From NCBI GenBank assembly GCA_021731005.1, contig JAKFYF010000081.1:1-51837 (forward strand): a stretch of DNA of 51,837 bases. Reading direction: 5' to 3'. The position numbers and the translations under genes are program-made. Shown piece after piece: positions 18,026 through 35,012 of this stretch. How positions within the stretch are numbered: the first letter of the stretch is position 1; every line of letters starts with the position of its first letter. The DNA comes from Hyphomonadaceae bacterium. GTDB lineage: Bacteria > Pseudomonadota > Alphaproteobacteria > Caulobacterales > Aquidulcibacteraceae. The notes below the pieces were generated by a model. It did no database searches. It was given only the letters and a program-made list of their open reading frames with translations, and was not told the origin of the DNA.

Positions 18026-18406
18026 TTGGCGACTGTTACTCTTTACCGGCCGATAGGCACTGCCGAGTTCGCGCTCTTGGAGCGTGCATTGTGGCGCGCG
18101 TTCCCAGCGATGCCGCAAGGGCACAAATTCTATGCCTACACCTCGCCACCTGAGGACGTGCTAGCCTGGAAAGAACGCTCGATGAAAATCGATGACATTC
18201 CAGAGGTTGGTCAAGCGGGCATTGTCCGAAGCTGGGAGGCTTGGGGCAATTCTCCTTCATCCGCGTTCATCGTGGCGTTCGAACTGGACGAGCAATCGCC
18301 CCTTCGTAAATCCGGATGGAATGATCGCAGCTATGAGGTTGATCAGATCAACGCCGCGCTGATTGGCATAATCTCGCTGCACGACTTGAACACTCCGAGC
18401 GAATGA
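18026..18406 (+). CDS. Hypothetical protein resembling the small 'ADP-ribosylation/crystallin J1'-annotated family
   Basis: N-terminus TLYRPIG..E.ALLE...WRAFP and C-terminal INAALIG.I recall that family; TTG start. Confidence 0.55.
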   Translation: MATVTLYRPIGTAEFALLERALWRAFPAMPQGHKFYAYTSPPEDVLAWKERSMKIDDIPEVGQAGIVRSWEAWGNSPSSAFIVAFELDEQSPLRKSGWNDRSYEVDQINAALIGIISLHDLNTPSE

Positions 18407-18569: not shown

Positions 18570-18655
18570 GCCCGGGCGAGATTGTCATCGACTCGCTCTC
18601 GGCTCCACAGGCGAGTAGGTTGTCCACATAGACGTGGGGTAGAGCGGGGCATTCG

Positions 18656-20845
18656 ATGGCGGTCACTGCGAACGAATGGGTGGGATCTGAATCCACCACG
18701 CAATCTGGCGCGAGCCAACGCGCTATAATCTGGGGGCTTTTTCAGATCGTCGCATTGGGCGGCTTGGCGCTTATCGGCTGGCTGGCGCTTGCGCCGCCGG
18801 TCCCCGTGTTCTGGCTGGGTGCTGGGTTTGCGGCTGCGGCGCTGCCTCAGCTCATGACAACCGCGCTGTTGATCCGCGAGGGTGCCCGCGCTCCTGGGCT
18901 GGCGCTTTGGACAACCGCTCTTGTTCTGTTCGCACTCTGCCTCGTGCTGGTTCAGGCGCCACGTTTCGGCGCTCACGATCCGACCATCGTGCATTCCGCG
19001 TTGGCATTCTTTGCGCTGGCGGCCCCCTATCTCGCGCTTTCGTTCAAGGTGCGCGAAGGCAAGGACATGAGCCCACGATGGCGATCTGGCGCCGTGAGCG
19101 CGATCGCGGCGTCGCAAACGCTCGCGCTCGCTGCGATGTGCGCTTCTCTACGATTTATCGCTGGCTTGGAAATCGAGACCTCTGCTCTGATCGCCTTCTA
19201 TACGATCATCATCGCCCAGCCTGTCGCCGCGTGCTGGCTGGAGGCGAGATCCGAGCATAAACTGCCGATCAAACCGGGCGGCGAACCCAAGCACGAGCAT
19301 ATCTCCGGCTTGGGCGTCATCTCGCTCGTCGTTTTCGTCATGACGATTGTGGGCCTGGGGCTATGGGCGGCTTCGAGAGCCAATAGCGCTTACATCAGCC
19401 AAGGCGCTGGCGTCATTGTCATCGCGGGTCTGGCCATCGCGTTTGCGCTCGTGGCTCTGGGGCCGAACGTGCGAGCGGGCGACCAGCTGGTGCGCGCACT
19501 GGCTGAAGCCAAGGTTATTTCCAGACTCGGCAATTTCGTCAGCCGAATCGATGGGGTTCTCGTGTTCGCGTTCGCCGGCGCGATGGGTGCAAGCCAAGAA
19601 CGCGGCGCGCTGCGCTACGGCCTGCTCGTCGGCCATCTCATTCCAAGCGCCATCCTCGGGTGGTTTCTGCCCGCGCCTTGGGGTCTGGTTCCGCTGGCTT
19701 GGGCGTTCATCGGCGCCATGGCGGTGGCCAGACGCTGGGCCTGGGTGGAGGAGGATCGCGAGAACGCGATGCTCAACAGGAAATTCGAAGGCCCGCATAT
19801 CAAGGTGGGCTTCGCCCAAGATCTCCGGGACGAAGCACTACTGGGTTTCATGTCGCTCTTTTTGCTTGTGCCGTTGGCGCTTCGGCAAATGCATATTGCC
19901 TTTGGCGGCAATCTCTTCGTGATCAATACCGGCGCGAGCGCCGATGATCTCATCGCCTGGATGAGCTTTTTCGGCACGGAGTTGGCCAAGGCAGTGCCGT
20001 TTGTCGACTGGGCCGAAATATATCAGGTCAAAGGCGATGCGCCGATCCATATCAATGACGCAAGCGTGGGGCCTGCCCAGCACGTTGTCTTCGCCACCCG
20101 CGTGATCGTCGATTTGGTGTTTCTCGCCGCTCTTCTGCAAGCCATCTCCATCTCGCAGCGCGCCGCCAAACTGAAGGACATGTTCTACAAGGACCGCACA
20201 CTCAACCGGCTTGATCCCTTTACGGAGGCCAAGGCGTTCAAAGCGCTTGTCGACGGCGAGAAGGGGTATTGGGTGCTGAGGGAGCCGATCCCTGAGCCGT
20301 TTTTGGCCTACGACGAGGATCGTTTGGAAGAACTGCAGATCAAGCACGAGAACGACGTGGTTGGTTTTGCCGCAAGCGAGCTATTGCGGCGCAACGCGCT
20401 GCGATCACCTGAACTATTGTTGGTCGAAGAGGCCAAGCTCGCCAAGCCCGATGCCGATAAGCTCGAAGACTACATCGAGCGCATCAGAGCTAAGCGCGAG
20501 GATCTGATCATCCATGACCTCAAGGCCGCGCACTACCTCTTGAATGAAGCGAGGACGCTACGGGCCGTTCGTGAAGAGATTGTCGAGATCATCGGCGAGA
20601 ACTGGCGAAACGACGGCGCCGTCAGCGCGCTTTCCGACATCCTGCTTGCTGGCGTCGGAGCGCGGGACGCGCGTCAAGAAGTGCGTCTAGCAGCGCTCAA
20701 GGGGCTCTATGCAGCAGCGGTGCACGGCGATCGGGAAGCGCGCATCGCAATAGTGTGGGCGGCGGACAATGAGGCGCAGAAGCTCAAGGAGCAGGCCAAC
20801 ACCTGGCTTAAGGAACATCCCGATTGGCGCGGCTCGCGCGCGTAG
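18656..20845 (+). CDS. Large polytopic membrane protein with helical C-terminal domain, unknown function
   Basis: 729-aa ORF, many hydrophobic segments, charged helical C-terminus (EVRLAALKGL, HEAT-like). Confidence 0.8.
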   Translation: MAVTANEWVGSESTTQSGASQRAIIWGLFQIVALGGLALIGWLALAPPVPVFWLGAGFAAAALPQLMTTALLIREGARAPGLALWTTALVLFALCLVLVQAPRFGAHDPTIVHSALAFFALAAPYLALSFKVREGKDMSPRWRSGAVSAIAASQTLALAAMCASLRFIAGLEIETSALIAFYTIIIAQPVAACWLEARSEHKLPIKPGGEPKHEHISGLGVISLVVFVMTIVGLGLWAASRANSAYISQGAGVIVIAGLAIAFALVALGPNVRAGDQLVRALAEAKVISRLGNFVSRIDGVLVFAFAGAMGASQERGALRYGLLVGHLIPSAILGWFLPAPWGLVPLAWAFIGAMAVARRWAWVEEDRENAMLNRKFEGPHIKVGFAQDLRDEALLGFMSLFLLVPLALRQMHIAFGGNLFVINTGASADDLIAWMSFFGTELAKAVPFVDWAEIYQVKGDAPIHINDASVGPAQHVVFATRVIVDLVFLAALLQAISISQRAAKLKDMFYKDRTLNRLDPFTEAKAFKALVDGEKGYWVLREPIPEPFLAYDEDRLEELQIKHENDVVGFAASELLRRNALRSPELLLVEEAKLAKPDADKLEDYIERIRAKREDLIIHDLKAAHYLLNEARTLRAVREEIVEIIGENWRNDGAVSALSDILLAGVGARDARQEVRLAALKGLYAAAVHGDREARIAIVWAADNEAQKLKEQANTWLKEHPDWRGSRA

Positions 20846-20890: not shown

Positions 20891-21015
20891 TACGTCCGTT
20901 ATCGGGTAGCGCTCAGTCGGCTCAGCGGAATGTCGGCTTGTGGGATGAAGCCCCGCTGCCGGTTGGGGTCGAACGGAAGGTTTGGGTTGGCCCGGCCAGT
21001 GATAACCTTGCGGCC
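20891..21015 (+). repeat. Degenerate ~125-bp intergenic repeat, copy B
   Basis: Collinear with 18447-18569. Confidence 0.7.
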
Positions 21016-21134
21016 ATCGGAGCAGGATTGGCCCCAATTTGCCGTCCAGCAATCGCGCGCCTGCCCACGATTTGGTTGCTGAAGAGGACAGCGCCTTCTA
21101 CGTTGCCGGCATCGGGTGCAGGCTGGGGGCGGCG

Positions 21135-21611
21135 ATGGGAGACGGCAGCGAGAGCAATCTTTATCGGTTGTGGGTCGAGGATATAGCACGCATTCGAGAA
21201 ATGCGGAGACAGACAACGGCTTTCTTTGTGTCGTTGAATTTGGCTGGTTACGGTGCCTTAGCCTTCGCGTTGTCGCCTAGCAACAACCTTCCGCGGCTCA
21301 CGGCTTTGGCTGCTTGCGTGGCGTTCTTGTTCGTCAACCTATCGTGGATTCTGACTGATCGAAGGTATGCGAAGCAGGCAGCGGCCAAATTTGCGTTCGC
21401 TCGCAAGCTCGAGGAATCGATGTCTCATCAGCCGCTTGCTAATGAGCACAAAGTTGTTGGGCAGCCTGCCGAACTCTCATGGTGGCTACTGATGGAGCGC
21501 TTGCTTCCCATACTCTTCAGCATCGGATTCGCAGGTTTGGCGGCTATCCAAGTGCCGTGGGCGATGCCCTTCAAAGCACCTGGCTGGTGGATTTGGCTTC
21601 TACAACGTTAG
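21135..21611 (+). CDS. RipA/Rip1-like small membrane protein
   Basis: Pattern LYRLWVE..ARI...RRQT.AFFVSLN, two TMs, W..TDRRY.K..A.KF.F.RKLEE.M..QP..NE, ERLLPILF matches my recollection of this family. Confidence 0.6.
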   Translation: MGDGSESNLYRLWVEDIARIREMRRQTTAFFVSLNLAGYGALAFALSPSNNLPRLTALAACVAFLFVNLSWILTDRRYAKQAAAKFAFARKLEESMSHQPLANEHKVVGQPAELSWWLLMERLLPILFSIGFAGLAAIQVPWAMPFKAPGWWIWLLQR

Positions 21612-21667
21612 AGACACGCGATTGGCCCCGCAGCATCAGAAGCAAGAAGGGGCAAGCTGGTGTGGCT

Positions 21668-23212
21668 ATGCGCAAGAGAGATAGCTCGCTTGACGAGGCG
21701 ATTGGCATACTAAAAACGTGGTCGCTGGGGCTCCACGACGAGGGCTTGATCGCGCGCGCCCTGCTGTTTGGAAGCGCCGTCGTCGATAAGGGGCGCAAGT
21801 TTTCGAGCGCAAGAAGCGACCTCGACGTAGTGCTGGAGGTGGAGTGGGAGAGCCTTCCGCGCCATGCCCGAGTTGTCGCAATGGATAAGCTGTTGGGGCA
21901 CAAAATCGCACTTGAGAAATCGCTTTCCGCGTTGCTCAGGCGTCCCGTCGACAAATCTGTGGCGAGTGTGGTGCTCATGACCCCATTCGAAATACGTAAT
22001 GGCGTGCACAAGGATGCTAACTCAACCATCATCTATGCGACGCCGATGGCGAGCTTGCTGGACGGTGGCGTGGTCTCGTCGCTAGGTCAGCGCAGCGATG
22101 CGGATCAAGTTTCACCCTTGTTAGAGGGGGCGCTCCGGTTTGTTCAGAAGAAGCGGAGCGAATACCTATCCGGAGCCTCGGATGGGGTATTGCCATCTTT
22201 GTCATCTCCGTTGGACTTTCGTGTGCCCAAGGAGCTGATGCGCAACTTTGCGATCTCCACCTTTAATGACGCCGAAGGAGACGACCCAGCGGATCTTTCG
22301 CGGGGCTTCAAAGAGCTGACATTATTCGGACTGGTGGCGACGGGGGCTCACGCGTTGGAACTCGATTTGGCGGAGTGGCTTGGGCCGAGGTTGAGTGAAG
22401 TTGGTTGCGTGGACAACTTGATGCCGAGGCAGGCATACATGCTGTGCTGTGAGAAAATCTACGACAACATTCGAGCGCAATTCGTTGGGCCAAGCGCCGT
22501 TGAGGTCATAAGAACGCCGCGAACCGCTCCTGTTTCCAGAGTCCCGGCATTGGCACTCGCGGACGCTTCTTTCAGAATATCCCAGACGAACAAGTTGGCG
22601 GGGAGCGCGGGACACAACATCAAGCAAATTCTGAACGCGCGTCTCAACCTGAGACTCTCGGCGGAAAAGTCGTTCGCGTTGTTGTTTGACGAGTCGCCAG
22701 ACGCGCGGGAGCTTGTGAACGCACCTGACGAGACGCTGCCGTTGAAACAGCACAAACAGAAGATCAAGATTCTGGAGAGGCGACTTACGGCCTACGGCCT
22801 GGAGCCCCGCATCGTCTGGGGGTGGGATAAGATATTGTATTATGCAGGGATCATCTGGGACGTTTCGGAGGATGAATTGCCGCCCTTAATCTTACGCGCG
22901 ATGCGGGCATGGGTGGATCATTGTTACCTTGGATTCGAAAATATCGGTGGCCGCTGGGAAGCGCTTCACGGAGGGATGTATCCGAGGATCCCGCTTGCTT
23001 TTTCCTTCTCTGTAAGTGGTGAACTCGACGGGCCAGAGCTCGGAGCTCAAGTTCCAGTCCGGCGCGTTTCCGATGAGGATCTAGCGGAGAGCTTTGTTCC
23101 CGAGTTGGTGTCAAAGGCCCGCCGCCTGTGCAGCGATGGCGTGTTGAAGGATGGAAGAGAGGAGCTGAAGGTCGTGTTCAACTGTGCAGAATGGTATTTC
23201 GGGTGGAAATAG
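21668..23212 (+). CDS. Pol-beta-superfamily nucleotidyltransferase-domain protein with unknown C-terminal region
   Basis: LLFGS..(12)..SDLDVVL signature; visibly lower GC than flanks. Confidence 0.65.
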   Translation: MRKRDSSLDEAIGILKTWSLGLHDEGLIARALLFGSAVVDKGRKFSSARSDLDVVLEVEWESLPRHARVVAMDKLLGHKIALEKSLSALLRRPVDKSVASVVLMTPFEIRNGVHKDANSTIIYATPMASLLDGGVVSSLGQRSDADQVSPLLEGALRFVQKKRSEYLSGASDGVLPSLSSPLDFRVPKELMRNFAISTFNDAEGDDPADLSRGFKELTLFGLVATGAHALELDLAEWLGPRLSEVGCVDNLMPRQAYMLCCEKIYDNIRAQFVGPSAVEVIRTPRTAPVSRVPALALADASFRISQTNKLAGSAGHNIKQILNARLNLRLSAEKSFALLFDESPDARELVNAPDETLPLKQHKQKIKILERRLTAYGLEPRIVWGWDKILYYAGIIWDVSEDELPPLILRAMRAWVDHCYLGFENIGGRWEALHGGMYPRIPLAFSFSVSGELDGPELGAQVPVRRVSDEDLAESFVPELVSKARRLCSDGVLKDGREELKVVFNCAEWYFGWK

Positions 23213-23440
23213 ACGCGAATTCTTCTCGCTTGACGTCACGGCCCTTCGACAACGGCAATCTCCGGCGATAAATGCTCGGTTGTGGGGCGAACTCATCCGT
23301 CGGCTAACCGGCGGTAAACGGCCGAACTGTCGGATTGGGGCGCCTCGCCGTTCGCGAACTTTAGCAGTCGTCTGACTGCCTGTTGAGGGGGAACCATCAG
23401 CGCTTCTCTGCGTATTCCCGCCAACACCGGCCAACACGCC

Positions 23441-23536
23441 GCGTCAGGGACCGACGCCCGAAGGGCCGAGCCGCGCAGGACCCGCGCGGCTCGGTGCGCA
23501 AGCACGAGGGCCCGGCCGCCAACGGCGGCGACGCCC
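23441..23536 (+). repeat. Multi-hairpin (cloverleaf) element, copy 1
   Basis: GCCC-GAA-GGGC, CCGAGCCGCGC/GCGCGGCTCGG, GTGC-GCAA-GCAC, GCCGCC-AAC-GGCGGC, closed by GCGTC/GACGC. Confidence 0.75.
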
Positions 23537-23742
23537 AGGTTCTGACTGCTTCAAGTCACCCCATTTCAGTCGGGTAGAATCCCTTGTACGACAAAAGCGC
23601 GATCGATCGTTCTCCCATCGCGCGAATTATCGCCTGTCAAGGGGCACGATCGTGTCCATCGACGCCGCCCCTGTTCTGAGTATTTGATTCGCACCCTGAC
23701 CGCCTGCGTGAGCGGCCACGCACCCGGCGCCAAGAGGGGTTC

Positions 23743-25770
23743 ATGCGCATCGTCATCGCACTCGCGATTGCTTTCATCATCGCTTTGGCGAGCTTGAGCG
23801 CCGCGACCCAAACCCTCGCCGCTATCTTCAGTCACCAAGCCGCCCTCGGTCCGCCGCTGCTGACATTGGGAAAGACCCGCCTTTACCCACCCTGGGCAGT
23901 GCTTTCCTGGACGCACGCTTATGCACAGCGGTTTCCCAAACCGTTCGCGGCGGCGCGTCTCATCGTGTTCGCGGGATTGTGTCTCGCGCTTCTCGCGATT
24001 GTGCTGGCGGTGCGAGCCAAGTTCGCCATCAAGCCATTCGGCAGACATGCGTGGGGCGGCGTCGACGACGTGGCCGCCGCGGGTCTTCTTGCCGAAACCG
24101 GCTGCGTGCTCGGCAGGTTCCAGCGCGAAGTCCTCTGCTTTGACGGCCCAGAACATCAGCTCCTCATCGGCGCTTCGCGCTCGGGCAAGGGCAGGGGCCA
24201 TGTGATCCCAACGCTGCTGGCCTGGCCGCATTCGGCATTGGTCTTGGACGTCAAGGGCGAACTCGCCGACGGCGATCTCCGCCATTCTTTCCCTGGAACC
24301 GCTGGCTTCCGCGAAACCTTAGGTCCCGTGCTGCGCTTTGCGCCCACGCGCATGGACTCCGCCGCCTTCAATCCGCTCCACGAAGTCAGGCGCGGTCCCA
24401 ACGAAGTCCGCGACGTGCAGAACATTGTCGAGATTTTAGTCGATCCCATCGGCGACGGGCGCCATCAGGATTTCTGGGATCGCTCGGCCAAGAACATCCT
24501 CGTGGGGGTCATCCTCCACGTCCTCTACGCCGAGCCTGGCGAGCGCAAGACGCTCGCAATGGTGCGCGAAAAACTCCGCGACCTCGACGCCACGGCGCAA
24601 GTCATGAAATCGACCTTGCACCGGCTCAACCCCGCGACCAATCGGCCCGAAGTGCATCCCGAAATTTTGCACGCCGCGGAATCCTTTCTCGCCGGCGAGG
24701 AACGGCTGCAATCAGGCGTCAAGGCGACCGCCGAGAGCTTCTTTGGCCTGTTCGCCGACGAGATCGTCGCCCAGAAAACCGCAGCCTCGGATTTCCGCAT
24801 CGGCGATCTGATGTGCGGGCCAAAACCCGTGACGCTCTTCTTGCAGCCCCCGCCCTCGGATGCGCTGCGCCTCATGCCGCTTCTGCGCCTCGTCATCAAT
24901 CAATTCGCCCGCGCGCTCATGGAAGACCAGAATGCCGACGCGCAGGGCCGTCCCAAGCGCCATCGCCTCATCCTCATGCTCGATGAATTCCCGATGCTCG
25001 GGCGCATGCAATTCTTTGAAACCATGATGGGGGCGATGGCGGGTTACGGCCTCAAGGCGTTTCTCGTCACCCAGAGCCTCAATCATCTCACCAAGGCCTA
25101 TGGCCGCGACAATGTCATTCTCGACAATTGCCACATCGTCACTTCGTTTGCCGCCGCCGACAACGACACCGCCAAGCGTATCGCGGAGATGGCTGGCGAA
25201 GTCTGGGAAATGCGCGAGAGCGAGACGCATACGCGTCCAAGATCGATCCTTGGATGGCGCAAGGGATCGACCACGATCCGCGAAGAACGCCGCCCGCTCA
25301 TGCTGCCCGCCGATGTCCGCGCGCTGCCCCGCGACCAGGAACTCATCTTCGTCTCCGGGGCCAAACCCATTCGCGCCAAGAAGCTCAAATTCGACCAGGA
25401 GCGGGTGTTCTCAGAGCGCTTGCGCCCGGCCTCCCCGCATCGCCCGCAGCTCTCCACCGGCCATGATTGGGCCAATGTGCGCCCGCTCGGATTCATCCCC
25501 CAGCCAGCAAAAGCGCCCAAAGTCCGGTCAGAAAGGGCAAAGCCCGCAATCGCGAAGCCCGCGGCGCCAAAGCCGGCGATGGCGCGGCCTCTGGCCCAGC
25601 AGCCCGATCTCTTCACCCAGGCCGCGGTGCGGGGAGGAACGCTCTCCGAGCTGGCCATGGCGGGCTTCCGCACTGTCGACGGAGCGCCGCTGCCCCATCC
25701 CTCAATTCCCTTGGCCGCCGAGCCAATTCCGGAACCAGCGCCGCGCGCCAGGCGCGCCAAAGGGGTTTGA
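23743..25770 (+). CDS. traG: Type IV coupling protein TraG/VirD4
   Basis: LYPPW, GASRSGKG Walker A, VIPTLL.W, DVKGE, FNPL.EVR, LMLDEFPMLG, QSLN, ILDNCH. Confidence 0.95.
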   Translation: MRIVIALAIAFIIALASLSAATQTLAAIFSHQAALGPPLLTLGKTRLYPPWAVLSWTHAYAQRFPKPFAAARLIVFAGLCLALLAIVLAVRAKFAIKPFGRHAWGGVDDVAAAGLLAETGCVLGRFQREVLCFDGPEHQLLIGASRSGKGRGHVIPTLLAWPHSALVLDVKGELADGDLRHSFPGTAGFRETLGPVLRFAPTRMDSAAFNPLHEVRRGPNEVRDVQNIVEILVDPIGDGRHQDFWDRSAKNILVGVILHVLYAEPGERKTLAMVREKLRDLDATAQVMKSTLHRLNPATNRPEVHPEILHAAESFLAGEERLQSGVKATAESFFGLFADEIVAQKTAASDFRIGDLMCGPKPVTLFLQPPPSDALRLMPLLRLVINQFARALMEDQNADAQGRPKRHRLILMLDEFPMLGRMQFFETMMGAMAGYGLKAFLVTQSLNHLTKAYGRDNVILDNCHIVTSFAAADNDTAKRIAEMAGEVWEMRESETHTRPRSILGWRKGSTTIREERRPLMLPADVRALPRDQELIFVSGAKPIRAKKLKFDQERVFSERLRPASPHRPQLSTGHDWANVRPLGFIPQPAKAPKVRSERAKPAIAKPAAPKPAMARPLAQQPDLFTQAAVRGGTLSELAMAGFRTVDGAPLPHPSIPLAAEPIPEPAPRARRAKGV

Positions 25771-25775
25771 GGCCC

Positions 25776-26228
25776 ATGCCGACGCGCAAGCTCAGCGTCT
25801 ATCTGCCCGACGCCCTCAACGCAAAAGTGCGCCAGGCAGCCCGCGACCAGCACCGCTCGGAATCGAGCATCATCTTGGAATCGGTGAAGGCGCGGCTTGA
25901 ACGCGGCGAGGCGACCAACGCCGCCATCGAGGAAAGTGCGCGCCGCCAGCTCAGCCGTGTGGACGCCCGGCTCGAAAAGCTGATCGGCGAAGGTCTCATC
26001 CTCAAGGAGATAGTGCTCCTCTTCATCCGGGTCTGGCTCGAACACAATCCTCCGATCGAGGAGCATCTGGAAGAGAGCGCTGCCGCCAGCGCCGAAGCGC
26101 GCTTCGAGCGCTTCCTCGATTTCGTTGCCCAACAACTCTCGCCGGGCAAGTCGCTCGGGGAAACGGTCTTCTCACTCACCGTCAGTGGAAATGGCGCGCA
26201 CGAGCCAGCAAGCGAGGCGCGAACGTGA
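25776..26228 (+). CDS. CopG/ribbon-helix-helix protein of the tra-trb operon
   Basis: KLSVYLPD..RSESSII, FIRVWL.HNPP, ARFERF; canonical position between traG and trbB. Confidence 0.8.
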   Translation: MPTRKLSVYLPDALNAKVRQAARDQHRSESSIILESVKARLERGEATNAAIEESARRQLSRVDARLEKLIGEGLILKEIVLLFIRVWLEHNPPIEEHLEESAAASAEARFERFLDFVAQQLSPGKSLGETVFSLTVSGNGAHEPASEART

Positions 26229-27175
26229 GCGCAGCGCCCATCAATATCGCGGCGGCCCGGCGGCGCTCGGCGCTCTCGCGCGCACTCGGGCCCGCCATCG
26301 CCGCGGCGCTCGAAGAGAATGACGTGGTCGAAGCCTTGGTCAACGCCGACGGCCGCGTTTGGTTCGACCGCGTCGGGAAAGGGCTCATCGCGACGCCGCA
26401 TCATCTGTCGCCGCAGGACCGCGAAGCGGCGATCCGGCTCCTGGCGCATGAGGCCGGGGAGACCGTCAGCGAGGACCGCCCTGCATTGGCGACCATTCTG
26501 CCCGACAGCGCCGCGCGCGTGCAGGCGCTTTTGCCGCCCTTGGTCGAAGCGCCAATCCTCGCCATCCGCAAGCGCCCCTCGGCGATTTACACGCTCGACA
26601 ACTATGTCAGCGACGGCATCGCCACCGCCGCCCAAGCCGAGAGGCTGGCGAATGCTGTACGCGAAAAACGCAACATCATCGTCGCCGGCGGGACGGGCAG
26701 CGGCAAGACCACTTTGCTCAATGCGCTCCTGGCCGAAGACGCCTTCCGCCAGGCCCGCATCGTCATCCTGGAAGACACCGCCGAGCTGCAATGCGCCAAT
26801 CCCAATTGCGTGCAGCTGCTGACCAAGCGCACCGATCCGCCCGTCACCATGCGCGAGCTGGTGCAAATGACGCTGCGCCTCAGGCCCGACCGCATCGTCG
26901 TCGGCGAAGTCCGCGATGGCGCGGCCCTCGAAGTACTCAAAGCCTGGAACACCGGCCATCCGGGTGGGCTGCTCACCCTGCACGCCAATTCCGCCGCCGA
27001 TGCGCTGATGCGGCTTGAAGACCTCTGCATGGAAGCGCGCGCCACCCCGCCCAAGCGTCTCATCGCCAGCGCCGTCGACATGATCGTGTTCATCGCCCGC
27101 CGCGAAGGCGGGCGGGTCATCACTGAAATCCTGGAGACCGAGAACCTAGTTGGAGGGGCGAGCCATGAGACATGA
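26225..27175 (+). CDS. trbB: P-type conjugative transfer ATPase
   Basis: GGTGSGKTT, LEDTAELQC, LRLRPDRIVVGEVR, WNTGHPGG..TLHAN. Confidence 0.95.
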   Translation: MSAAPINIAAARRRSALSRALGPAIAAALEENDVVEALVNADGRVWFDRVGKGLIATPHHLSPQDREAAIRLLAHEAGETVSEDRPALATILPDSAARVQALLPPLVEAPILAIRKRPSAIYTLDNYVSDGIATAAQAERLANAVREKRNIIVAGGTGSGKTTLLNALLAEDAFRQARIVILEDTAELQCANPNCVQLLTKRTDPPVTMRELVQMTLRLRPDRIVVGEVRDGAALEVLKAWNTGHPGGLLTLHANSAADALMRLEDLCMEARATPPKRLIASAVDMIVFIARREGGRVITEILETENLVGGASHET

Positions 27176-27479
27176 GAAAGTCCTGCGCGTTGCGGCGATT
27201 ACGCTGGGCGCGTGCATCCTGGCGGCGCCCGCTTACGCCGCCGGTTCCGGCATGCCCTGGGAAGGGCCGCTGCAGCAGATCGTCGATTCGATCACGGGTC
27301 CGGTCGCACGCGCCGCCGCCGTGATCGCCATCGTCATCGCCGGGGTGACCATCATCTTCTCCGAAGGCGGCGGCGGAGTGCGCAAGCTCGCCTTCGTGGG
27401 CCTCGGCATCGCCATCATGTTCGCGGCGGTCTCGTTCTTTCTCGACTTCTTCGGCTTTGCCGGCGGGGCGACGATATGA
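27165..27479 (+). CDS. trbC: TrbC/VirB2 pilin
   Basis: AAGSGMPWEGPLQQIVDSITGPVA, FFGFAGGA. Confidence 0.93.
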   Translation: MRHEKVLRVAAITLGACILAAPAYAAGSGMPWEGPLQQIVDSITGPVARAAAVIAIVIAGVTIIFSEGGGGVRKLAFVGLGIAIMFAAVSFFLDFFGFAGGATI

Positions 27480-27748
27480 ACGCCGCCGATCTCGAGCCCG
27501 AAGGCTATCGCATCCCGCTCAGGACCTCGCTCACGCGCCCGATCCTGATGGGCGGCGTGCCGCGCAACTTCGCCATTCTCAACGCAACCGTCGGCGCGGC
27601 GATCGGCTTCGGTCTGCAACAACCCTTCATCGCCTTTCCGTTATGGGCTGTGCTGCAAGGCGCCGCTGCGTGGGCCGCTGCGCGCGATCCCTGGTTTCTC
27701 GACACCTGGCCGCGTCACATGGCCAAGCCTCATTATTTCGGATCGTGA
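27476..27748 (+). CDS. trbD: TrbD/VirB3
   Basis: SLTRPILMGGVPR..AILN, AARDP motif. Confidence 0.9.
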   Translation: MNAADLEPEGYRIPLRTSLTRPILMGGVPRNFAILNATVGAAIGFGLQQPFIAFPLWAVLQGAAAWAAARDPWFLDTWPRHMAKPHYFGS

Positions 27749-27758
27749 GGCGCGACGC

Positions 27759-30251
27759 ATGATGGATCTGCGCCCTTACAAGAAGTCCGGCACGCAACTC
27801 AGCGATTTCCTGCCCTGGGCTGCGTTGATCGCGCCGGGCGTGGTCCTCAGCAAGGACGGCGCCTTCCAGCGCACCATGGCGTTTCGCGGTCCCGACCTCG
27901 ATTCCTCGACGCCGTCCGAACTGATGGGGGCGTCCGCGCGGCTCAACAACGCGTTCCGCCGATTGGGGTCCGGCTGGTGTCTTCATGTCGAGGCGCGCCG
28001 CGCGCCCGCACCGGGCTATCCGGACTCGGTATGGCCCGACGCCTTGTCTTGGCTCATCGATGAAGAGCGCCGCGCCGTGTTCGAGGCCGCCGGTGCGCGA
28101 TTCGAGAGCGCCTATTTCTTCACGCTGACATGGCTGCCTCCCGCTGAGCGCCAAACCCGGCTGGAAAGCTTTCTGTTCGAAGGCGCGCAGGATGGCGCGA
28201 GCGCGCCGACAGCTTCTGTCGATTATCGCCAGCATCTCGACCGCTTCACCAACGAGACCGATCAGATCCTGTCTCTGATGGAGACGCTCGCGCCCGAAGC
28301 GCGCTGGCTCGATGATGAGGAGACGCTGACCTATCTGCACGATTGCGTCTCCGATCGTCCCCATCGGGTGGCCAGACCGGACACGCCCTTCCATCTCGAC
28401 GCGCTTTTGACCGACGCGCCGCTCGTGGGTGGTCTCGCGCCGTGCCTTGGGCGCCATCATCTGCGGGTCATTTCGGTGCGCAGCCTCGTGACGGAGACGG
28501 AGCCCGGCTTTCTCGATGCACTCAATCGGCTGGCGATCTCCTATCGCTGGGTCAGCCGCTTCATTCCGCTCGACCGGGAAGAGGCGCGCCGCGAACTGGA
28601 GAAGACCCGCAAGCGCTGGTTCTCGAAACGCAAAGGCCTTCTGACCTTGCTGCGGGAAGCTCTTTTCAGGGAAGAGGCGCTGCTGGTCGACAATGACGCC
28701 GCCAACCAAGCCGCCGACGCCGACACCGCGCTGCAGGAACTCGGCGCCGATGCTGTCAGCGCGGGCTATGCCACACTCACCATCACCGTCGCCGATGCAA
28801 GCGAGGATATGGCCGACGATGCGGTGCGCCAGATCCAACAGATCGCCGATGGCCTGGGCTTCGTCACGCAAGTTGAGTCCGTCAATGCCGTGGAAGCCTG
28901 GCTCGGCTCATTGCCTGGACAGGCCTACGCCGATGCACGCCGGCCGATCCTCCTGTCGCCCAGTCTCGCGCATTTGCTGCCGCTCAGCGCGGTCTGGGCG
29001 GGGCCGCACGGCAATACGCATCTGAATGGGCCACCACTCATGCTCACGGCGACGGATGGCGCAACGCCGTTCCGGCTCGATCTCCATGTCGGCGATGTCG
29101 GTCACACCATGATCGTCGGGCCAACCGGCGCGGGCAAATCGGTGCTGCTCGCAACGCTAGCCGCGCAATGGCTGCGCTACACGTCGTGTCATCCTGCGGG
29201 TGCGCAGATCTATCTGTTCGACAAGGGGCGCTCGTGCCGCGCCACTATTCTCGCCCTCGGCGGCGACTTCTTCGATCTGGGCGAGGCCGATGCGTTGGGC
29301 TTGCAGCCGCTTGAACATGTGCATGAGCCGGATGAACGCGCCTGGGCGCAAGACTGGCTCGTCGGTCTGATCGCTTCGGCCAATGTGACCGTGACGCCCG
29401 AGGTGCGCACGGAAGTGTGGCGCGTTCTGGAATTGCTGGCTGATCGGCCGTTGGAGGACCGGACGCTGACCTTGTTTGCGGCGTTGATGCAGAACCAGGA
29501 CGTCCGCGCCGCGCTTCATCCGTTCACGCAAGGAGGCGCGCACGGCCGGCTCATCGACCACGATCGATCAACCTTGGGCTATGGGCCGGTCCAGGCGTTC
29601 GAGATGGATGATGTGTTGCGCCGTCCCGAAGCGGCGGGCGCGGTGCTCGGCGCGCTTTTTCATGCCTTGGAGAAACGCTTCGACGGGCGCCCGACCATGC
29701 TCGTCCTCGACGAGGCCTGGCTCTTCCTCAAGGACGCCTTCTTCGCAGCCCAGATTCAAGATTGGCTGAAGACGCTTCGAAAGCGCAACGTGGCCGTCGT
29801 GTTCGCAAGCCAGGAACTGGCCGATGTCGAACACTCTTCCATCGCCTCCACCATCATCGAAGCCTGCCCGACGCGCATTTACTTGCCGAACGATCGCGCA
29901 CGCGAGCCGCATTCGCGCGCTTTCTACGCCGCCTTGGGCTTGAACGGTCGCCAGATCGATCTCATCGCAAGTGCGACGCCCAAGCGCGACTATTACCTCG
30001 TCAGCCGCGATGGCTGCCGGCTGTTCGAATTGGGCCTTGGGCCTGCGTCGCTCGCTTTTGTCGGCGCGTCCCGTCCCGAGGATCACACGCTGATGGATCG
30101 TGTGTTGGCCGAGCACGGCGCAAGCGCCTTTGCCGAAGAATGGCTCGACCTGCGCGGACAGCGCGAAGCGGCTGACGCGGTGCGGCGTTTCAAGGCGCGC
30201 GCATCCCCGCGCGTCACTGATGAGCCCAAGGTCCGGATCGCTGCAGAATAG
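27759..30251 (+). CDS. trbE: Conjugal transfer ATPase TrbE/VirB4
   Basis: DFLPWAAL, FRGPDLDS, DVGHTMIVGPTGAGKS, LDEAW, WLKTLRK. Confidence 0.96.
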   Translation: MMDLRPYKKSGTQLSDFLPWAALIAPGVVLSKDGAFQRTMAFRGPDLDSSTPSELMGASARLNNAFRRLGSGWCLHVEARRAPAPGYPDSVWPDALSWLIDEERRAVFEAAGARFESAYFFTLTWLPPAERQTRLESFLFEGAQDGASAPTASVDYRQHLDRFTNETDQILSLMETLAPEARWLDDEETLTYLHDCVSDRPHRVARPDTPFHLDALLTDAPLVGGLAPCLGRHHLRVISVRSLVTETEPGFLDALNRLAISYRWVSRFIPLDREEARRELEKTRKRWFSKRKGLLTLLREALFREEALLVDNDAANQAADADTALQELGADAVSAGYATLTITVADASEDMADDAVRQIQQIADGLGFVTQVESVNAVEAWLGSLPGQAYADARRPILLSPSLAHLLPLSAVWAGPHGNTHLNGPPLMLTATDGATPFRLDLHVGDVGHTMIVGPTGAGKSVLLATLAAQWLRYTSCHPAGAQIYLFDKGRSCRATILALGGDFFDLGEADALGLQPLEHVHEPDERAWAQDWLVGLIASANVTVTPEVRTEVWRVLELLADRPLEDRTLTLFAALMQNQDVRAALHPFTQGGAHGRLIDHDRSTLGYGPVQAFEMDDVLRRPEAAGAVLGALFHALEKRFDGRPTMLVLDEAWLFLKDAFFAAQIQDWLKTLRKRNVAVVFASQELADVEHSSIASTIIEACPTRIYLPNDRAREPHSRAFYAALGLNGRQIDLIASATPKRDYYLVSRDGCRLFELGLGPASLAFVGASRPEDHTLMDRVLAEHGASAFAEEWLDLRGQREAADAVRRFKARASPRVTDEPKVRIAAE

Positions 30252-30260
30252 GAGGCGCGT

Positions 30261-30980
30261 ATGAAACGGAGAACAAGAACTGGAATGGCCGCCTTGGCGA
30301 TCTGCCTGATGCTTGGCGTGCAGCCGACGCCGCCCGCATCGGCGCAAATCCCGGTCATCGATCCCGCCAATCTTGCACAGTCGATCACGCAGGTGACGCA
30401 CATGGTGCAGCAATTGCGCAACCAAGTGCAGCAGATCGAGCAAGCGACGGCGATGCTGCGGCAGAATCCGCTCCAGCTCTCACCCGAGCTCTCGCAGTCG
30501 ATCGGGGAAGCCCGCGCGCTGTTCAACAGTGTGCAAGGCGTCGCCTTCGAGGCTCATCAGCTCGGCGAGGATTTGCGCACCCTCTATCCAGAGACCTGGG
30601 AGAATTTCGATCTCGAAGAGGTTCTGGGTCAGTCGGACCAGTGGATGGCGGAAAGCCGCCGCAGCCTTGAACGCGCGATGGCGGCCGAAGCGCGCGCGGC
30701 GGCTTCGATCGGACGCACGCAAGGCGCCATCGATCGTGCGCTGCAATCGTCCGGTAGCTCGGAAGGTCAGACCGGCGCCATCCAGGCCGGCAATCAGCTC
30801 TTAGGCATTCAGGCCTCGCAGCTTGCGGAGATTCACACGCTGCTGATTGCGCAGGGCCGCGCGCTTGAAACTGAACGCCTGGAGCGGATCGCGCGCGAAG
30901 AGCGCGCCCGCGAAATTCAGCGGCGCGCTTTCCCGACCGAAACCTCAGGCACGCTGCCACCAGCGCGCACGGCGTTCTGA
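30261..30980 (+). CDS. trbJ: Conjugal transfer protein TrbJ/VirB5
   Basis: Signal peptide, VIDPANLAQ, GAIQAGNQLL. Confidence 0.9.
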   Translation: MKRRTRTGMAALAICLMLGVQPTPPASAQIPVIDPANLAQSITQVTHMVQQLRNQVQQIEQATAMLRQNPLQLSPELSQSIGEARALFNSVQGVAFEAHQLGEDLRTLYPETWENFDLEEVLGQSDQWMAESRRSLERAMAAEARAAASIGRTQGAIDRALQSSGSSEGQTGAIQAGNQLLGIQASQLAEIHTLLIAQGRALETERLERIAREERAREIQRRAFPTETSGTLPPARTAF

Positions 30981-30996
30981 GCGAGGGCGCCGCGCG

Positions 30997-32037
30997 ATGG
31001 ATCCGGCATCGGTCAATTCTTTCCTCGATCAGTTTCTGGCTGTCGCCAATTCCGGCTTCGGCCTGATCCAGGGCGATGTGACTTATGTCCTGAATGCGCT
31101 GATCGTCATTTCGATCGTGCTGGCGGGCGCCCAATGGGCGTTGGCGCAGGAGGCGCCGCTCGCGCCCTTCTTCCGCAAGGTGCTATTCGTCTCGTTCTTC
31201 GCCTTCCTCATCAACAATTGGAATTTCCTCGCCACCGCCATCAATCAATCGGGCGCCATGCTTGGCCTGCGCGCCGGCGGGGGCGGGCTCACCATGGCGG
31301 AGCTGCACAATCCCGGCCGCGTGGGGCAGATCGGCGTCGAGCTTTTCGGCCGCACCGCGGCGCTCGCCGAAGGCATGAACATCCTCACCGACTTCTTCGC
31401 GATGATGACAATCTTCCTCGCGGCGTTCTTCGTCATGCTCGGTTTCTTCGTGCTGGCGCTGCAGCTCTTCGTGGTGCTGATCGCGTTCAAACTCGGTTCT
31501 CTGGTCGCGTTCGTGGCGTTGCCCTGGGGCGTGTTCAACGGCACGGCCTGGGTGGCGGAGCGACCGCTTGGCTGGGTGGTGGGCTCGGCCATGCGCCTCT
31601 TCGTGCTGGCCTTTGTCGCGTCGGTCGCCATCACGTTCGTCAACACATTGCCCGCGACCTTCACGCTTGACGCCGGGGGCGTGCTCAATGTGCTTCTGTT
31701 CGGCGCCACTGTTCTGGCGCTCTCCTGGTTCGCGCCCATTCTCGCGAGCGAGGTCGTCCAGGGACAGCCGCATCTGGCGGGACCGGCTGTCGCCGGCGCC
31801 GCCGCGGTCACCACCGTGCTTGGCGTCGCCGGTACGACAGCCTTCGTTTCCAACGCCACAAAACTCGCCGTTGGCGGCGCAAGAATGATTGGCGGCGCGG
31901 CGAAATCGGCGGGTCGCCGCTTCTCAAGCGGCGGCGGGCCTCAAGGCGCTGCACGGCCCGCCATCGACTATGCCGGCATGAAGCCGCCGCCACCGCCGCC
32001 GCCTGCAACGCCGCCATCTGGAGGAAGTAGTACATGA
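30997..32037 (+). CDS. trbL: Conjugal transfer protein TrbL/VirB6
   Basis: SGFGLIQGDV, KVLFV.FFAFLINNW, AFKLG, AERPLG; Gly/Pro-rich tail. Confidence 0.92.
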   Translation: MDPASVNSFLDQFLAVANSGFGLIQGDVTYVLNALIVISIVLAGAQWALAQEAPLAPFFRKVLFVSFFAFLINNWNFLATAINQSGAMLGLRAGGGGLTMAELHNPGRVGQIGVELFGRTAALAEGMNILTDFFAMMTIFLAAFFVMLGFFVLALQLFVVLIAFKLGSLVAFVALPWGVFNGTAWVAERPLGWVVGSAMRLFVLAFVASVAITFVNTLPATFTLDAGGVLNVLLFGATVLALSWFAPILASEVVQGQPHLAGPAVAGAAAVTTVLGVAGTTAFVSNATKLAVGGARMIGGAAKSAGRRFSSGGGPQGAARPAIDYAGMKPPPPPPPATPPSGGSST

Positions 32038-32717
32038 GGACGCCGTTCACGGCGCCGGCGCAATCCTATGCCGGCGACGAGCCCGACACGCCCTATAAGC
32101 GCGCGCGCCAGGAATGGGACCGGCGCATGGGTGCGGCGGTCATTTCCGCGCGCGCTTGGCGTCTGATGGCGATGGCGGGACTTCTCCTCTCCGCAGGCCT
32201 TGCGCTCGCGCTCACGATCGTCGCGCTGCAGAGCCGAACCTTTGTGCATGTCGTCGAGGTCTCGCCCGAAGGCCAGGTGCTCAATGTACGCGCCGCGAGC
32301 GGCGAATGGCGCGCGACCGAAGCGCAGACCGCATATCATCTAGGGCGCTTCGTGCGTCTCGTGCGGGCTTTGCCAACCGATGGCGTGGTGCTGCGCGAGA
32401 ACTGGCTGGAAGCGTACAAATTCCTGACGCCGCAGGCGGCGGCGCAATTGACCGAGATCGCACGCGCGGACGATCCGTTCCTGAGCCTAGGGCGCGTCGG
32501 ACGCACCGTCCATATTCGCTCGATCATCCAGCGTTCCGATCGATCCTGGGAAGTCTCCTGGATCGAGCGCGAGACCAATGCGACCGGATCGCCCGATGGC
32601 GAGGCCTATAGTGGCGTCTTCTCCGTCACGACGCGCCGCCCACGCACCGCCGATGAGATCGCCAGTAATCCGCTCGGTCTGCTCATCTCCGATTTCAGCT
32701 GGAGCCGGGTGCGATGA
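32034..32717 (+). CDS. trbF: Conjugal transfer protein TrbF/VirB8
   Basis: TPYKRARQEWDRRMG, NW..AY.FLT, NPLGL...DFSWSR. Confidence 0.93.
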   Translation: MRTPFTAPAQSYAGDEPDTPYKRARQEWDRRMGAAVISARAWRLMAMAGLLLSAGLALALTIVALQSRTFVHVVEVSPEGQVLNVRAASGEWRATEAQTAYHLGRFVRLVRALPTDGVVLRENWLEAYKFLTPQAAAQLTEIARADDPFLSLGRVGRTVHIRSIIQRSDRSWEVSWIERETNATGSPDGEAYSGVFSVTTRRPRTADEIASNPLGLLISDFSWSRVR

Positions 32718-33598
32718 TGCGTTTGATATTCGTAAGCCTGTCGCTGGCGCTGATGCTGTCGCCGCCAACGGCCATGGCGCAGGAGGTGAGCGCCGATCAA
32801 TGTCCCGCCTTGAGCGCCGCCGTATTGGAGGCGCCGCGCCGTGGCCGGCGCGAACCGACGCCCACCGAATTGCTCGCACGCGCCAATGAGGCGGCGCGCC
32901 AGCGCCCCGAGACGACAAGTTTCACGCAGGCGCGGCAGGTCTACACCTATGCGCCCGGCGCCATCTATGAGCTCTACACCAGCCCCAGCTTCATCTCCGC
33001 CATCCTGCTCGAACCCGGCGAGACTCTGGGCGATGTCGCCGCCGGCGATACGTCGCGCTGGATGGTGCAGGAGACCAGCGCGGAAGCCGAGATCGATGGG
33101 CGCACCATTGTGCTGGTGAAGCCCCAGACGACCGGCCTTCGCACCAATATCGTTCTCGTCACCGACCGGCGCACCTACACGATCGAAGCGATTGCGCAGG
33201 CAGGCTCTGCCTATTCTGCACAAATCGCCTGGTGCTATCCTGCCGAAGAAGAGGCGCGGATGGCGAGCGTCGATCAACTCCATTTCGGCTACCGCGTCCG
33301 CACCGTGCGCGGCGGCAGACCAAATTGGATGCCGACCCGCGTGTTCGACGATGGCCGGCGCACCTGGATTGAAATGCCGGAAGCGGTCGCATCGAGCGAT
33401 CTGCCGCCGCTCTTTGTCATCACCGGCGAGGGCGCCGAACTCGTGAATTATCGCGTGCAGGGCCAGCGCTACATGGTCGACCGCATCTTCGATGTCGCCG
33501 AATTGCGCCTCGGCACGCGTGCGCCAACGATCGTGCGCATCGAACGCGAAGGCGCGCCGACCCAGCGCCGGCCCGCGCGCCTCGGAGGTCGGCCGTGA
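32714..33598 (+). CDS. trbG: Conjugal transfer protein TrbG/VirB9
   Basis: AAGDTSRW, LVKP, TDRRTY, VFDDGRRT.I, PPLFV, LVNYRV. Confidence 0.93.
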   Translation: MMRLIFVSLSLALMLSPPTAMAQEVSADQCPALSAAVLEAPRRGRREPTPTELLARANEAARQRPETTSFTQARQVYTYAPGAIYELYTSPSFISAILLEPGETLGDVAAGDTSRWMVQETSAEAEIDGRTIVLVKPQTTGLRTNIVLVTDRRTYTIEAIAQAGSAYSAQIAWCYPAEEEARMASVDQLHFGYRVRTVRGGRPNWMPTRVFDDGRRTWIEMPEAVASSDLPPLFVITGEGAELVNYRVQGQRYMVDRIFDVAELRLGTRAPTIVRIEREGAPTQRRPARLGGRP

Positions 33599-34698
33599 CC
33601 GCAACCTATGAGGCGCCAGCGCCAGAACCGGGGCCCGATCTCTCGATCCGCGCGCGTCCGCCCAGTCCGCGTCGGCTGTCGCGCAAGGTGCTGATGGCCG
33701 GCGCCATCATCGCCGCCTCCATCGTCACGCTCGCGCTCTTCATCGGTCTGAGCGAACGCCCCGAGCGCGAGGTGCGCCAGGCCGACGCGCAAGCAGCGGC
33801 GAGCGGGCCGCCGGAATCGATCCGCAACGCATCCGGTCAATATGCAGCGGGCGATCTGCCGCGCGCCGAACTTGATGCGCCGCGCGACATGCTCTGGGGC
33901 GAGAACGGTCCGCCACAAGGCGCAACGCTGGAGCCGCCCGCGGATGCGGCGTGGTCAGGTCCGCCCCGCGGCGCCGATACAAGCGCGCGTGCGGCGCCGC
34001 CAGACCCGCAGGCTCTGGCGCGAACTTCGCCAATCATCTTTGACGGACGAGATCGCGCCACGGCGTCTCTAGCCGCCGATGCAGGCGAAGCGCGTCTCGA
34101 TGCGCGCCTGATGCCGCCGCGCTCCCGCTATGAGCTGATGGCGGGCGCGGTGGTGCCGGCCGCGCTCATCACCGAACTCAATTCCGAACAGCCGGGCCGC
34201 GCTATCGCGCAGGTGACGGCCAACGTCTATGACAGCGTCTCCGGCGCGCATCTGCTGATCCCGCAGGGAGCGCGGCTCATCGGGACATATGACGCGGACA
34301 CATCCTACGGCGAACGCCGGCTCGTGCTCATCTGGAACCGGCTTATCTTTCCCAATGGCTGGAGCATTTCCTTGCGCGGCATGGAGGGGAGCGATCCGAC
34401 CGGCGCTGCGGGCCTGCGCGACCGCCTCGATAATCATCTGGGCCGTCTCGCCGGCGCCATCGGGCTTTCCGCCATCGTCAGCGTGATCGCCGACAATGCG
34501 GAAGACGATGATGAAAACTCGTTTGCCCAGAGTGTTGGCGATGCGGCGGCGTCGGAGGCCGCGCGCACCGGCGGTCGCATCGTCGATCGCGAACTCGGCG
34601 TGAGACCCACCATCCGCGTCCGCGCCGGTGGCTCCGTGCGCTTGTTGGTGTCGCGCGACATTCAGTTGCGGCCTTACCGGGAAGACCGGAGACGATGA
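33595..34698 (+). CDS. trbI: Conjugal transfer protein TrbI/VirB10
   Basis: AGAVVPAALIT.LNS..PG...AQV..NVYDS, LLIPQGARLIG, WNRLIFPNG, G.AGL.D..DNH. Confidence 0.93.
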   Translation: MTATYEAPAPEPGPDLSIRARPPSPRRLSRKVLMAGAIIAASIVTLALFIGLSERPEREVRQADAQAAASGPPESIRNASGQYAAGDLPRAELDAPRDMLWGENGPPQGATLEPPADAAWSGPPRGADTSARAAPPDPQALARTSPIIFDGRDRATASLAADAGEARLDARLMPPRSRYELMAGAVVPAALITELNSEQPGRAIAQVTANVYDSVSGAHLLIPQGARLIGTYDADTSYGERRLVLIWNRLIFPNGWSISLRGMEGSDPTGAAGLRDRLDNHLGRLAGAIGLSAIVSVIADNAEDDDENSFAQSVGDAAASEAARTGGRIVDRELGVRPTIRVRAGGSVRLLVSRDIQLRPYREDRRR

Positions 34699-35012
34699 AG
34701 GTTCCGGCTGACCTTGTGCCGCAAAAGGTGGTGGCGGACGATCTTTGCGTGAGCCTCGCCACGCTCTGGCGCGCGCGCCGTAGCAACCTTCCGGGTTTTC
34801 CCGCGCCGGTCATCGTCCGCAACATGGTGTTCTGGAGGAAGGCCGATCTCGGCAAGCTGGAGGATGCGCTGCTGCAGTTCCAAGGGCGCGGCAAGTTCGA
34901 ACAGGAGCGCGAGCGGTCAAAACGCATCGCCGCCATGACGAAGGCCCGCCCGCAACCCAAGCGCATCAAACGCACGCGCCGTCCGGACGACCGCCAGCGC
35001 GATCTCTTTTGA
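34695..35012 (+). CDS. Small AlpA/excisionase-like DNA-binding protein
   Basis: VADDLCVSLATLWRARR...GFPAPV......FWR..DL winged-HTH pattern; ATGA-coupled to trbI; basic tail. Confidence 0.6.
   Translation: MKVPADLVPQKVVADDLCVSLATLWRARRSNLPGFPAPVIVRNMVFWRKADLGKLEDALLQFQGRGKFEQERERSKRIAAMTKARPQPKRIKRTRRPDDRQRDLF

Follow-up and report, generated by a model that had tools for sequence, protein, structure and literature searches.

The window analysed here, contig C1 (51,837 nucleotides) in the incomplete 3.4-Mb genome of a Hyphomonadaceae bacterium, carries two adjacent genes, here called A and B, which encode a small membrane protein and a nucleotidyltransferase (NTase). Both proteins are new, divergent members of families that are named but uncharacterised, 8xMP (PF24838) for gene A and NTase-conflict (PF20697) for gene B. 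The reading that we put first, and hold tentatively, is that the two genes form a mobile cassette in which a stand-alone abortive-infection NTase travels with an 8xMP passenger that acts separately. As the original prediction had noted, the genes are 56 bp apart on the same strand, their GC content (0.542 for gene A and 0.563 for gene B) is below that of the genome (0.646) and of virD4 (0.639), and they lie directly upstream of a type IV secretion module, with virD4 (PF02534) starting at 23743, 530 bp past gene B, and the trb genes following. Longer open frames exist for both genes (starts 21039 and 21479) and overlap each other; the shorter starts used here are those at which the alignments of homologues begin.

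21135-21611, +: gene A, 158 aa, 8xMP (PF24838), three long helices and a short C-terminal helix
21668-23212, +: gene B, 514 aa, NTase-conflict (PF20697) and a C-terminal domain
21668..22477, +: N-terminal domain of gene B (PF20697, residues 1-270), pol-beta head then helical lobe
22550..23212, +: C-terminal domain of gene B (residues ~295-514), mostly helical, unnamed
20928-21044, +: repeat R3, which bounds the two-gene unit on the left (E 1.8e-6 when the window copies are left out of the model)
23250..23357, +: probable right end of the unit, with a short stretch similar to the 5' end of a repeat copy (~23250-23269) ahead of a degenerate core (23298-23357)

The two genes likely act separately because the pair was not found together in the other genomes examined. 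An 8xMP gene was present at none of the five other NTase loci (L040, L049, L117, L118 and L119) and an NTase gene at none of the 57 other 8xMP loci, so that both families occur together only in loci of the window; the sample is small, most flanks being 1.5 kb and 23 of the 57 8xMP loci near-copies of one orthologue. The conserved NTase-plus-pore system that had been proposed from the window is thus not borne out, nor did the suggested co-occurrence check find the pair beyond the window loci. Both other full-length homologues of gene B for which there is context stand without 8xMP: that at L040 (33% identical) lies tail-to-tail with the bacteriophage exclusion (BREX) genes pglX, pglZ and brxL, and that at L049 (36% identical) follows a halogenase/non-ribosomal peptide synthetase (NRPS) cluster. 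At L117 the NTase is fused to NACHT, and at L119 it follows a TPR protein. Gene A, for its part, falls in a clade of the genus together with asd-side copies (23 loci) and one housekeeping-context copy. At the edge of the BREX locus, an unnamed 326-aa gene with no family match (L040:7772-8752) is divergent from the NTase homologue.

Several points weigh against separate action. The two genes sit in a single unit and on a common low-GC plateau, the 56 bp between them contain no repeat, and most of the closed units in the clearest arrays of the genome (C25, C106 and C112) contain one gene, by crude gene picks. The co-occurrence data are also thin, in that context is available for two of the 24 homologues of the same architecture, three of the NTase loci have 1.5-kb flanks, and for P0006, the 8xMP protein closest to gene A, the neighbourhood lies outside the sample. 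Finally, the neighbourhood of L049 is not one of defence genes.

If gene B does act alone, its C-terminal domain would hold the NTase head inactive and sense a phage product. The released head would then transfer a nucleoside monophosphate, by way of metal bound at D51 and D53, onto a host target (a protein, a tRNA or a small molecule), with S100, E108, H114 and K115 standing in for the usual third carboxylate, and the modified target would lead to arrest of the infected cell. On its own, the product of gene A would assemble into a ring in the membrane, as would its paralogues resident in the genus, which have no adjacent signalling partner. The trigger, the target and the defence role of gene B are what we infer here. 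A defence role, as originally predicted, is plausible for both families, given the treatment of NTase-conflict in the excerpted text of Kaur et al. 2021 (PMC8195603), the BREX neighbour at L040 and the TIR-8xMP operons described below.

The nucleotidyltransferase and its active site

Residues 24-266 of gene B match PF20697 with 86.6 bits (cut-off 24) over model positions 11-255 of 259, which makes it a divergent member of that family. In the part of Kaur et al. 2021 (PMC8195603) that deals with it, the domain is a novel pol-beta NTase among the variable N-terminal domains that are likely effectors of conflict systems. Searching 1.84 billion representatives by profile, we obtained 297 homologues at E 0.001; the best 150 were taken, and the domain was alignable in 144 of these. 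The conservation counts that follow refer to these listed homologues. Gene B bears an FGS..SDLD motif and a VASVVLMT strand (strand 99-104 in the model). The notable residues of its pol-beta head are G35, S36, D51, D53, S100, E108, H114 and K115, and those of the helical lobe are Q160, R163, P187, K188, R192, G213 and E262. In the head, G35 and S36 are conserved in 139/139, D51 in 141/141, D53 in 140/141, S100 in 141/141, E108 in 137/142 (the other five having Asp), H114 in 137/142 and K115 in 140/142; in the lobe, R163 is conserved in 142/142, R192 in 140/140 and E262 in 132/132, and G213 is invariant where covered.

An acidic residue in strand 99-104 was found in none of the 141. The active site had been called atypical from the window, with the GS and DxD elements but no acid in VASVVLMT; the description stands, but what looked like an oddity is the norm for PF20697. 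Judged from the alignment, the absent third carboxylate is a signature of the family, and gene B retains the full residue set. Since the loss of the third acid is a family trait (Ser100 in 141/141) and Glu108, His114 and Lys115 are conserved, the site of gene B is likely to be intact, and we infer that S100, E108, H114 and K115 replace the missing carboxylate. The possibility that gene B encodes a broken, inactive enzyme was considered and rejected, every invariant residue being kept.

The structure model (predicted local distance difference test score, pLDDT, 89) consists of the pol-beta head, the helical lobe, a disordered linker (274-293, pLDDT <50) and a separate C-terminal domain. About 350 aa of unrecognised C-terminus had been noted at first; the NTase domain reaches ~270, leaving an unrecognised part of ~220 aa (~295-514). 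The nearest folds to the head are a minimal NTase (Z 5.9, root-mean-square deviation (rmsd) 3.2, 101 residues), the MNT antitoxin 8xeh (Z 5.7, rmsd 3.0, 97 residues) and ANT(9) (Z 5.5, rmsd 3.7, 118 residues). By these values, which are weak, the head is closer to minimal and aminoglycoside NTases than to cyclic-dinucleotide synthases, and with Z this low the modelled fold confirms the superfamily only. The Foldseek list is topped by ANT(9)/AadA (E 3e-3), and neither the model of gene B nor that of gene A has a match in the PDB at E 0.001; none was found for gene B among viral structures either. For gene B, sequence searches of the PDB and of viral contigs were empty, and there was no informative PADLOC or NCBIfam match, the weak exception being PDC-S09 (E 9e-4, residues 28-106). 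The absence of an informative PADLOC match, which extends to gene A, had been put forward as a sign of novelty; both genes nevertheless have Pfam families.

PF20697 is rare. It occurs in one of 61 relatives (this genome alone) and in 4 of 401 phylum genomes, and the full-length alignment of gene B finds 3 of 401 class genomes, one of them marginal. A separate genome scan by alignment found no relative. With a degenerate motif, 2 matches came from genomes and 12 from metagenomes, and one of them proved to be a genuine homologue (L040).

The C-terminal domain of gene B has no match in Pfam, NCBIfam, PADLOC or PHROG, residues 275-514 have no usable Atlas match, and VIA-align, which searched the domain within the whole-protein model, gave nothing clear. 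It is common to at least 24 homologues, in a cluster of 25 proteins that includes gene B. Indeed, such extensions are widespread: 106 of the 144 listed homologues have >150 residues beyond the NTase domain, and 107 proteins, gene B included, fall into 30 clusters of C-terminal extensions, the largest having 30, 25 (gene B's own) and 14 members. Among the 84 homologues scanned for named extra domains, we found NACHT, NB-ARC with TPR, nSTAND, WD40, HAD, metallophosphoesterase, kinase and FGE-sulfatase. An NTase domain with exchangeable C-terminal modules has, as far as sequences can tell, the pattern of an N-terminal effector in a one-protein sensor-effector, and the C-terminal domain of gene B is likely the sensor. 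The other two large clusters are likewise unnamed, and comprise 30 proteins (P0032, P0037, P0039, P0040 and 26 more) and 14 proteins (P0057, P0062 and 12 more). Fusions to a HAD phosphatase or metallophosphoesterase are seen in P0036, P0042, P0043, P0087 and P0077; the two activities in one chain hint at synthesis and removal of a nucleotide mark.

The likeness to 8xeh raises the question of a toxin-antitoxin pair. MNT neutralises a HEPN toxin by nucleotidylation, and gene A could by analogy be a membrane toxin that gene B neutralises in the same way, stabilising the cassette or the conjugative element. The two-gene arrangement on a mobile element would suit such a role, but neither family was accompanied by the other at any other locus examined, the near-core 8xMP paralogues have no antitoxin-like neighbour, and Z <8 may reflect a common arrangement only. 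We regard this as the least probable of the explanations considered.

The membrane protein and the 8xMP family

Gene A matches PF24838 with 52.9 bits (cut-off 30) over model positions 3-134 of 136, and its top Atlas matches are 8xMP (0.96). It had first been labelled RipA/Rip1-like; the family found is 8xMP, with no homology to Rip1 shown. In the predicted structure (pLDDT 91), helices 4-45, 54-94 and 112-143 form a bundle, and hydrophobic segments lie at 55-73 and 123-141. No informative match was returned by PADLOC or NCBIfam, the PDB sequence search was empty, viral contigs contained nothing, and VIA-align found generic helical bundles only (best Z 10.1). Neither gene A nor four other 8xMP queries had a PHROG match.

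The family is present in 27 of 61 relatives and in 28 of 401 class genomes. Within the genus it is near-core (23 of 36 genomes), and most copies adjoin asd (23 loci). The asd-side genes, for example L002:1477-1959 on contig C54 and those at 22 further genus loci, are divergent from asd and have genome-typical codon use; the near-core copy is possibly a domesticated pore-type protein.

Elsewhere the neighbours are different in kind. Of 22 class-wide 8xMP loci, five (L088, L089, L091, L103 and L115) have a ThsB_TIR gene directly upstream, L104 has a STING-domain gene following, L095 has AbiJ-NTD4 and three have a DUF2383 gene preceding, the remainder having housekeeping or unnamed neighbours. 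Among the loci of closer relatives, L057 also has ThsB_TIR, and L050 has a weak TIR match beside a DUF262-type gene. The ThsB-like TIR and 8xMP genes form two-gene operons, which are candidate Thoeris-like systems with an 8xMP effector:

L088:1459-2348, L089:1486-2351, L091:1136-1920, L103:998-1905, L115:1027-1965, L057:6992-7830: ThsB-like TIR then 8xMP, often overlapping

Other arrangements were also seen, namely an 8xMP gene at the end of a PDC-M60 A/B/C nucleosidase operon (L052:2541-7567), one ahead of the STING-domain gene (L104:409-1875), a fusion of 8xMP to a PDC-S08-like domain (L053:7074-8279) and a tandem pair of 8xMP genes (G485:C8:197115-197968). A tree of 56 rows places gene A and P0006, a homologue at 70-72%, with the housekeeping-context L051 and the asd-linked copies (support 100/99). 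The TIR-linked copies fall outside this clade, on long branches of uncertain order, and the tree has no firm root. Within gene A's own clade, neither TIR nor NTase neighbours are found.

These operons bear on the idea that genes A and B are coupled, the NTase taking the place of TIR: on sensing phage, it would produce a nucleotide signal, and this would open a pore of 8xMP oligomers. Partners of other 8xMP genes (TIR in five of the 22 class-wide loci and at L057, STING at L104, AbiJ-NTD4 at L095 and PDC-M60 at L052) speak for such coupling, as do the tight spacing and shared GC of a single unit. ThsF and MisC are three-helix, nucleotide-gated analogues as described in the preprint excerpts cited below, and in some NTase homologues a fused HAD or metallophosphoesterase domain would suit the turnover of a product of nucleotide type. 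Against this, there is no second occurrence of the pair, the clade of gene A is one without TIR or NTase neighbours, and the NTase is mostly fused to its own sensors. Coupling is therefore unlikely in our estimation, and separate action of the two proteins remains the reading we prefer.

The repeat array and the locus

The two genes lie within an array of ~120-bp repeats. The genome has 45 copies at E 0.01, in same-orientation arrays (a shuffled genome gave <=13 bits), on the window and on contigs C2, C18, C25, C106, C112, C117, C144 and others. The window holds two further copies upstream of R3, scored with the same model, and other features flank the unit as follows.

17885-17999, +: repeat R1, first of the array in the window (E 2.2e-17)
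18026..18406, +: short open reading frame (ORF) between R1 and R2, 126 aa, no Pfam match
18484-18592, +: repeat R2, before the P0003 gene (E 0.011)
18656..20845, +: P0003, 729-aa multi-pass membrane protein of the preceding unit, no Pfam family
23743..35012, +: VirD4 and Trb type IV secretion genes (Pfam T4SS-DNA_transf, T2SSE, TrbC, CagE_TrbE_VirB, TrbL, VirB8, CagX, TrbI)

The left junction of the unit is at ~20940-20946, in R3. A contig of sequencing run X5 (study P2) matches the window exactly to 20940 and continues with 71 other letters, and one of run X7 (study P3) matches exactly to 20946, followed by 199 unaligned letters. On the right, a short X7 contig begins matching at 23266 after 51 unaligned letters. 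Similar breaks occur at the other repeats, a run X1 contig departing from the window at 17896, inside R1, and a segment (18411-18502) that recurs at 98.9% identity on C2:48388-48479 ceasing to match inside R2. The junctions fall within the first 20 bases of the repeat. The unit is thus likely to be 20947-23265 (2.3 kb, GC 0.567), with a firm left end and a tentative right end: the right-boundary repeat is seen in the alignment, but it scores <5 bits by profile and is not significant. Picked out by eye, it was discarded as a fourth repeat after gene B on that profile result.

With no repeat copy between them, genes A and B likely move as one cassette within the repeat-bounded array. The earlier alternative of two independent cassettes is physically likely wrong; the genes may still be independent in function. 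The low-GC plateau spans ~21100 to 23200, and GC at third codon positions is lower in only 1.5% of 1337 reference ORFs for gene A and in only 11.6% for gene B. No sigma-70 promoter or terminator above chance was found at the locus. A contig of run X2, whose study may be the source of the assembly, spans 21073-21668 (gene A and the gap). In runs X5, X7, X9, X10 and X11 there was almost no cover on genes A and B while P0003 was covered, and no contig joined across the unit; such missing cover is not evidence either way.

Folding of the repeats was no better than that of shuffled sequence (12 folds of six repeats, z -0.98 to 1.22), and they match no Rfam family. One copy used as a query matches at least 28 of 80 genus genomes, and next to array C106 lie genes for an IS91-family transposase and a large serine recombinase. 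The named genes among 39 ORFs in or beside the arrays are mixed (PCMT, DUF5655, WD40, MarR, AlkZ and GGDEF) and include no named defence family, again by crude gene picks. Because neighbouring array units carry unrelated genes, adjacency in such arrays says little.

P0003 has some nine hydrophobic segments plus a tail of helices; its distribution in the genus is patchy (35 of 80 genomes), with multiple copies. It was rejected as a third component, not being linked to the pair in 29 other loci, where no 8xMP gene lay within 1.5 kb of its homologues. A paralogue on contig C82 likewise adjoins a repeat copy. In 19 related elements, the position upstream of virD4 is occupied by ardC, parB, asnC or varied cargo, never by genes A and B, and the notion that this slot is a defence hotspot found no support there. 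A second, different palindromic repeat precedes virD4 (23439-23537) and recurs in the window at 41160-41269, with more copies on C11 and C76.

There is also an explanation outside defence. Gene A would then be a stray copy of a membrane protein that serves the genus in housekeeping or stress, and gene B, like aminoglycoside NTases, would act on a small molecule, either an antimicrobial or a metabolite. The other array units and the virD4 slot in the 19 relatives do consist mostly of genes that are not defence genes; 8xMP is near-core beside asd and has stress or housekeeping neighbours in many class-wide loci; ANT(9)/AadA heads the Foldseek list; and L049 follows an NRPS/halogenase cluster. 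Opposed to this are the STAND, NACHT and TPR fusions and the rapid exchange of modules, which are typical of conflict proteins, as well as the BREX neighbour at L040 and the rare, scattered occurrence of PF20697. We think it improbable, a little more so than coupling of the two genes, and continue to favour a stand-alone NTase with a passenger.

It is also conceivable, if no more probable than the coupling set out above, that the window holds an undescribed defence system. In it, the PF20697 enzyme, by way of its Ser/Glu/His-Lys active site and in place of the TIR enzyme, would synthesise a novel messenger to open the 8xMP pore, and the two genes would travel as one cassette in arrays that are not integrons but have a ~120-bp recombination site of their own.

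Comparison with known systems

Our literature search did not find this pairing or the C-terminal domain of gene B. For 8xMP, PF24838, PF20697 and NTase-conflict it returned unrelated uses only, with nothing relevant on RipA, and the literature examined reports no activity for the PF20697 family. The family has an unusual, strictly conserved active site. Because gene B is compact and well modelled, with one extra domain, the question of whether it is a toxin or a messenger synthase is directly testable. As to 8xMP, its genes are often partnered with ThsB-like TIR genes, in operons ready for testing.

Gene B agrees with the NTase-conflict proteins treated in the excerpted text of Kaur et al. 2021 (PMC8195603) in having every invariant residue, an N-terminal position and an exchangeable C-terminal module. 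It differs from them in that its C-terminal domain is unnamed, being neither TRADD-N nor STAND nor a repeat.

For gene A, the closest parallels are small membrane effectors. In the part of a Thoeris preprint consulted (bioRxiv 10.64898/2025.12.03.692087), type V uses the three-helix, ring-forming, nucleotide-gated effector ThsF/DUF2270 and type VII is ThsH/SLATT. Gene A is likewise a small multi-helix membrane protein, and other 8xMP genes follow a ThsB-like TIR gene. In contrast, no TIR family was found in the ORFs neighbouring gene A, and none of 56 8xMP members matched DUF2270 or SLATT at E 0.05, though there may be a more remote homology. The TIR-8xMP operons may already be among the 29 types in Table S1 of that preprint. 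The MisC protein of type II Metis, as described in an excerpt of a second preprint (bioRxiv 10.1101/2025.11.05.686725), has three predicted membrane helices, a predicted octameric state, nucleotide gating and a HAD phosphatase (misB) partner. Compared by this description, gene A is also a three-helix protein with a nucleotide-handling enzyme as its partner; that partner, however, is an NTase, and no HAD gene lies beside gene A. The supplements of the Metis preprint may place MisC in the 8xMP family. Rip1 (Patel et al. 2026), in the excerpt of a review (PMC13434031), has an N-terminal amphipathic helix, forms 12-mers on phage terminase or portal rings and occurs mostly in prophages. No Rip1 chain was among the PDB sequence or fold matches listed for gene A, a result that does not exclude homology. 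By description, both would be small, ring-forming, membrane-disrupting proteins, but gene A has the fold of a three-helix bundle, lacks any PHROG match and lies outside a prophage, in a repeat array beside conjugation genes.

The juxtaposition of a pol-beta NTase, with GS and DxD motifs, and a membrane protein is reminiscent of known antiphage pairs. The cyclic oligonucleotide-based antiphage signalling system (CBASS) couples a CD-NTase to a 2TM, 4TM or SLATT effector, and AbiE/MenT and MNT-HEPN are NTase pairs. Unlike the CBASS synthases, gene B has no PADLOC CBASS profile (E up to 1), lacks the third strand carboxylate (as do all 141 listed homologues) and has an extra 220-aa domain, and the pairing of synthase and effector is not conserved (0/5 and 0/57, in a small sample). 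Unlike AbiE and MNT-HEPN, it has no AbiEi or HEPN partner, its neighbours being 8xMP and virD4, and no PADLOC AbiE profile.

The arrays resemble integron attC arrays in that same-orientation repeats separate mostly single, unrelated genes and the junctions fall inside the repeat, and differ in that the ~120-bp repeats, unlike attC, do not fold better than shuffles and have no Rfam match. Gene capture of the IS91/ISCR kind offers a second parallel, one array (C106) abutting an IS91-family transposase and a serine recombinase. IS91-linked gene arrays have been described before, though our literature search turned up none. The repeat arrays point to a gene-capture system, probably other than a classical integron, that is able to load cargo onto conjugative elements.

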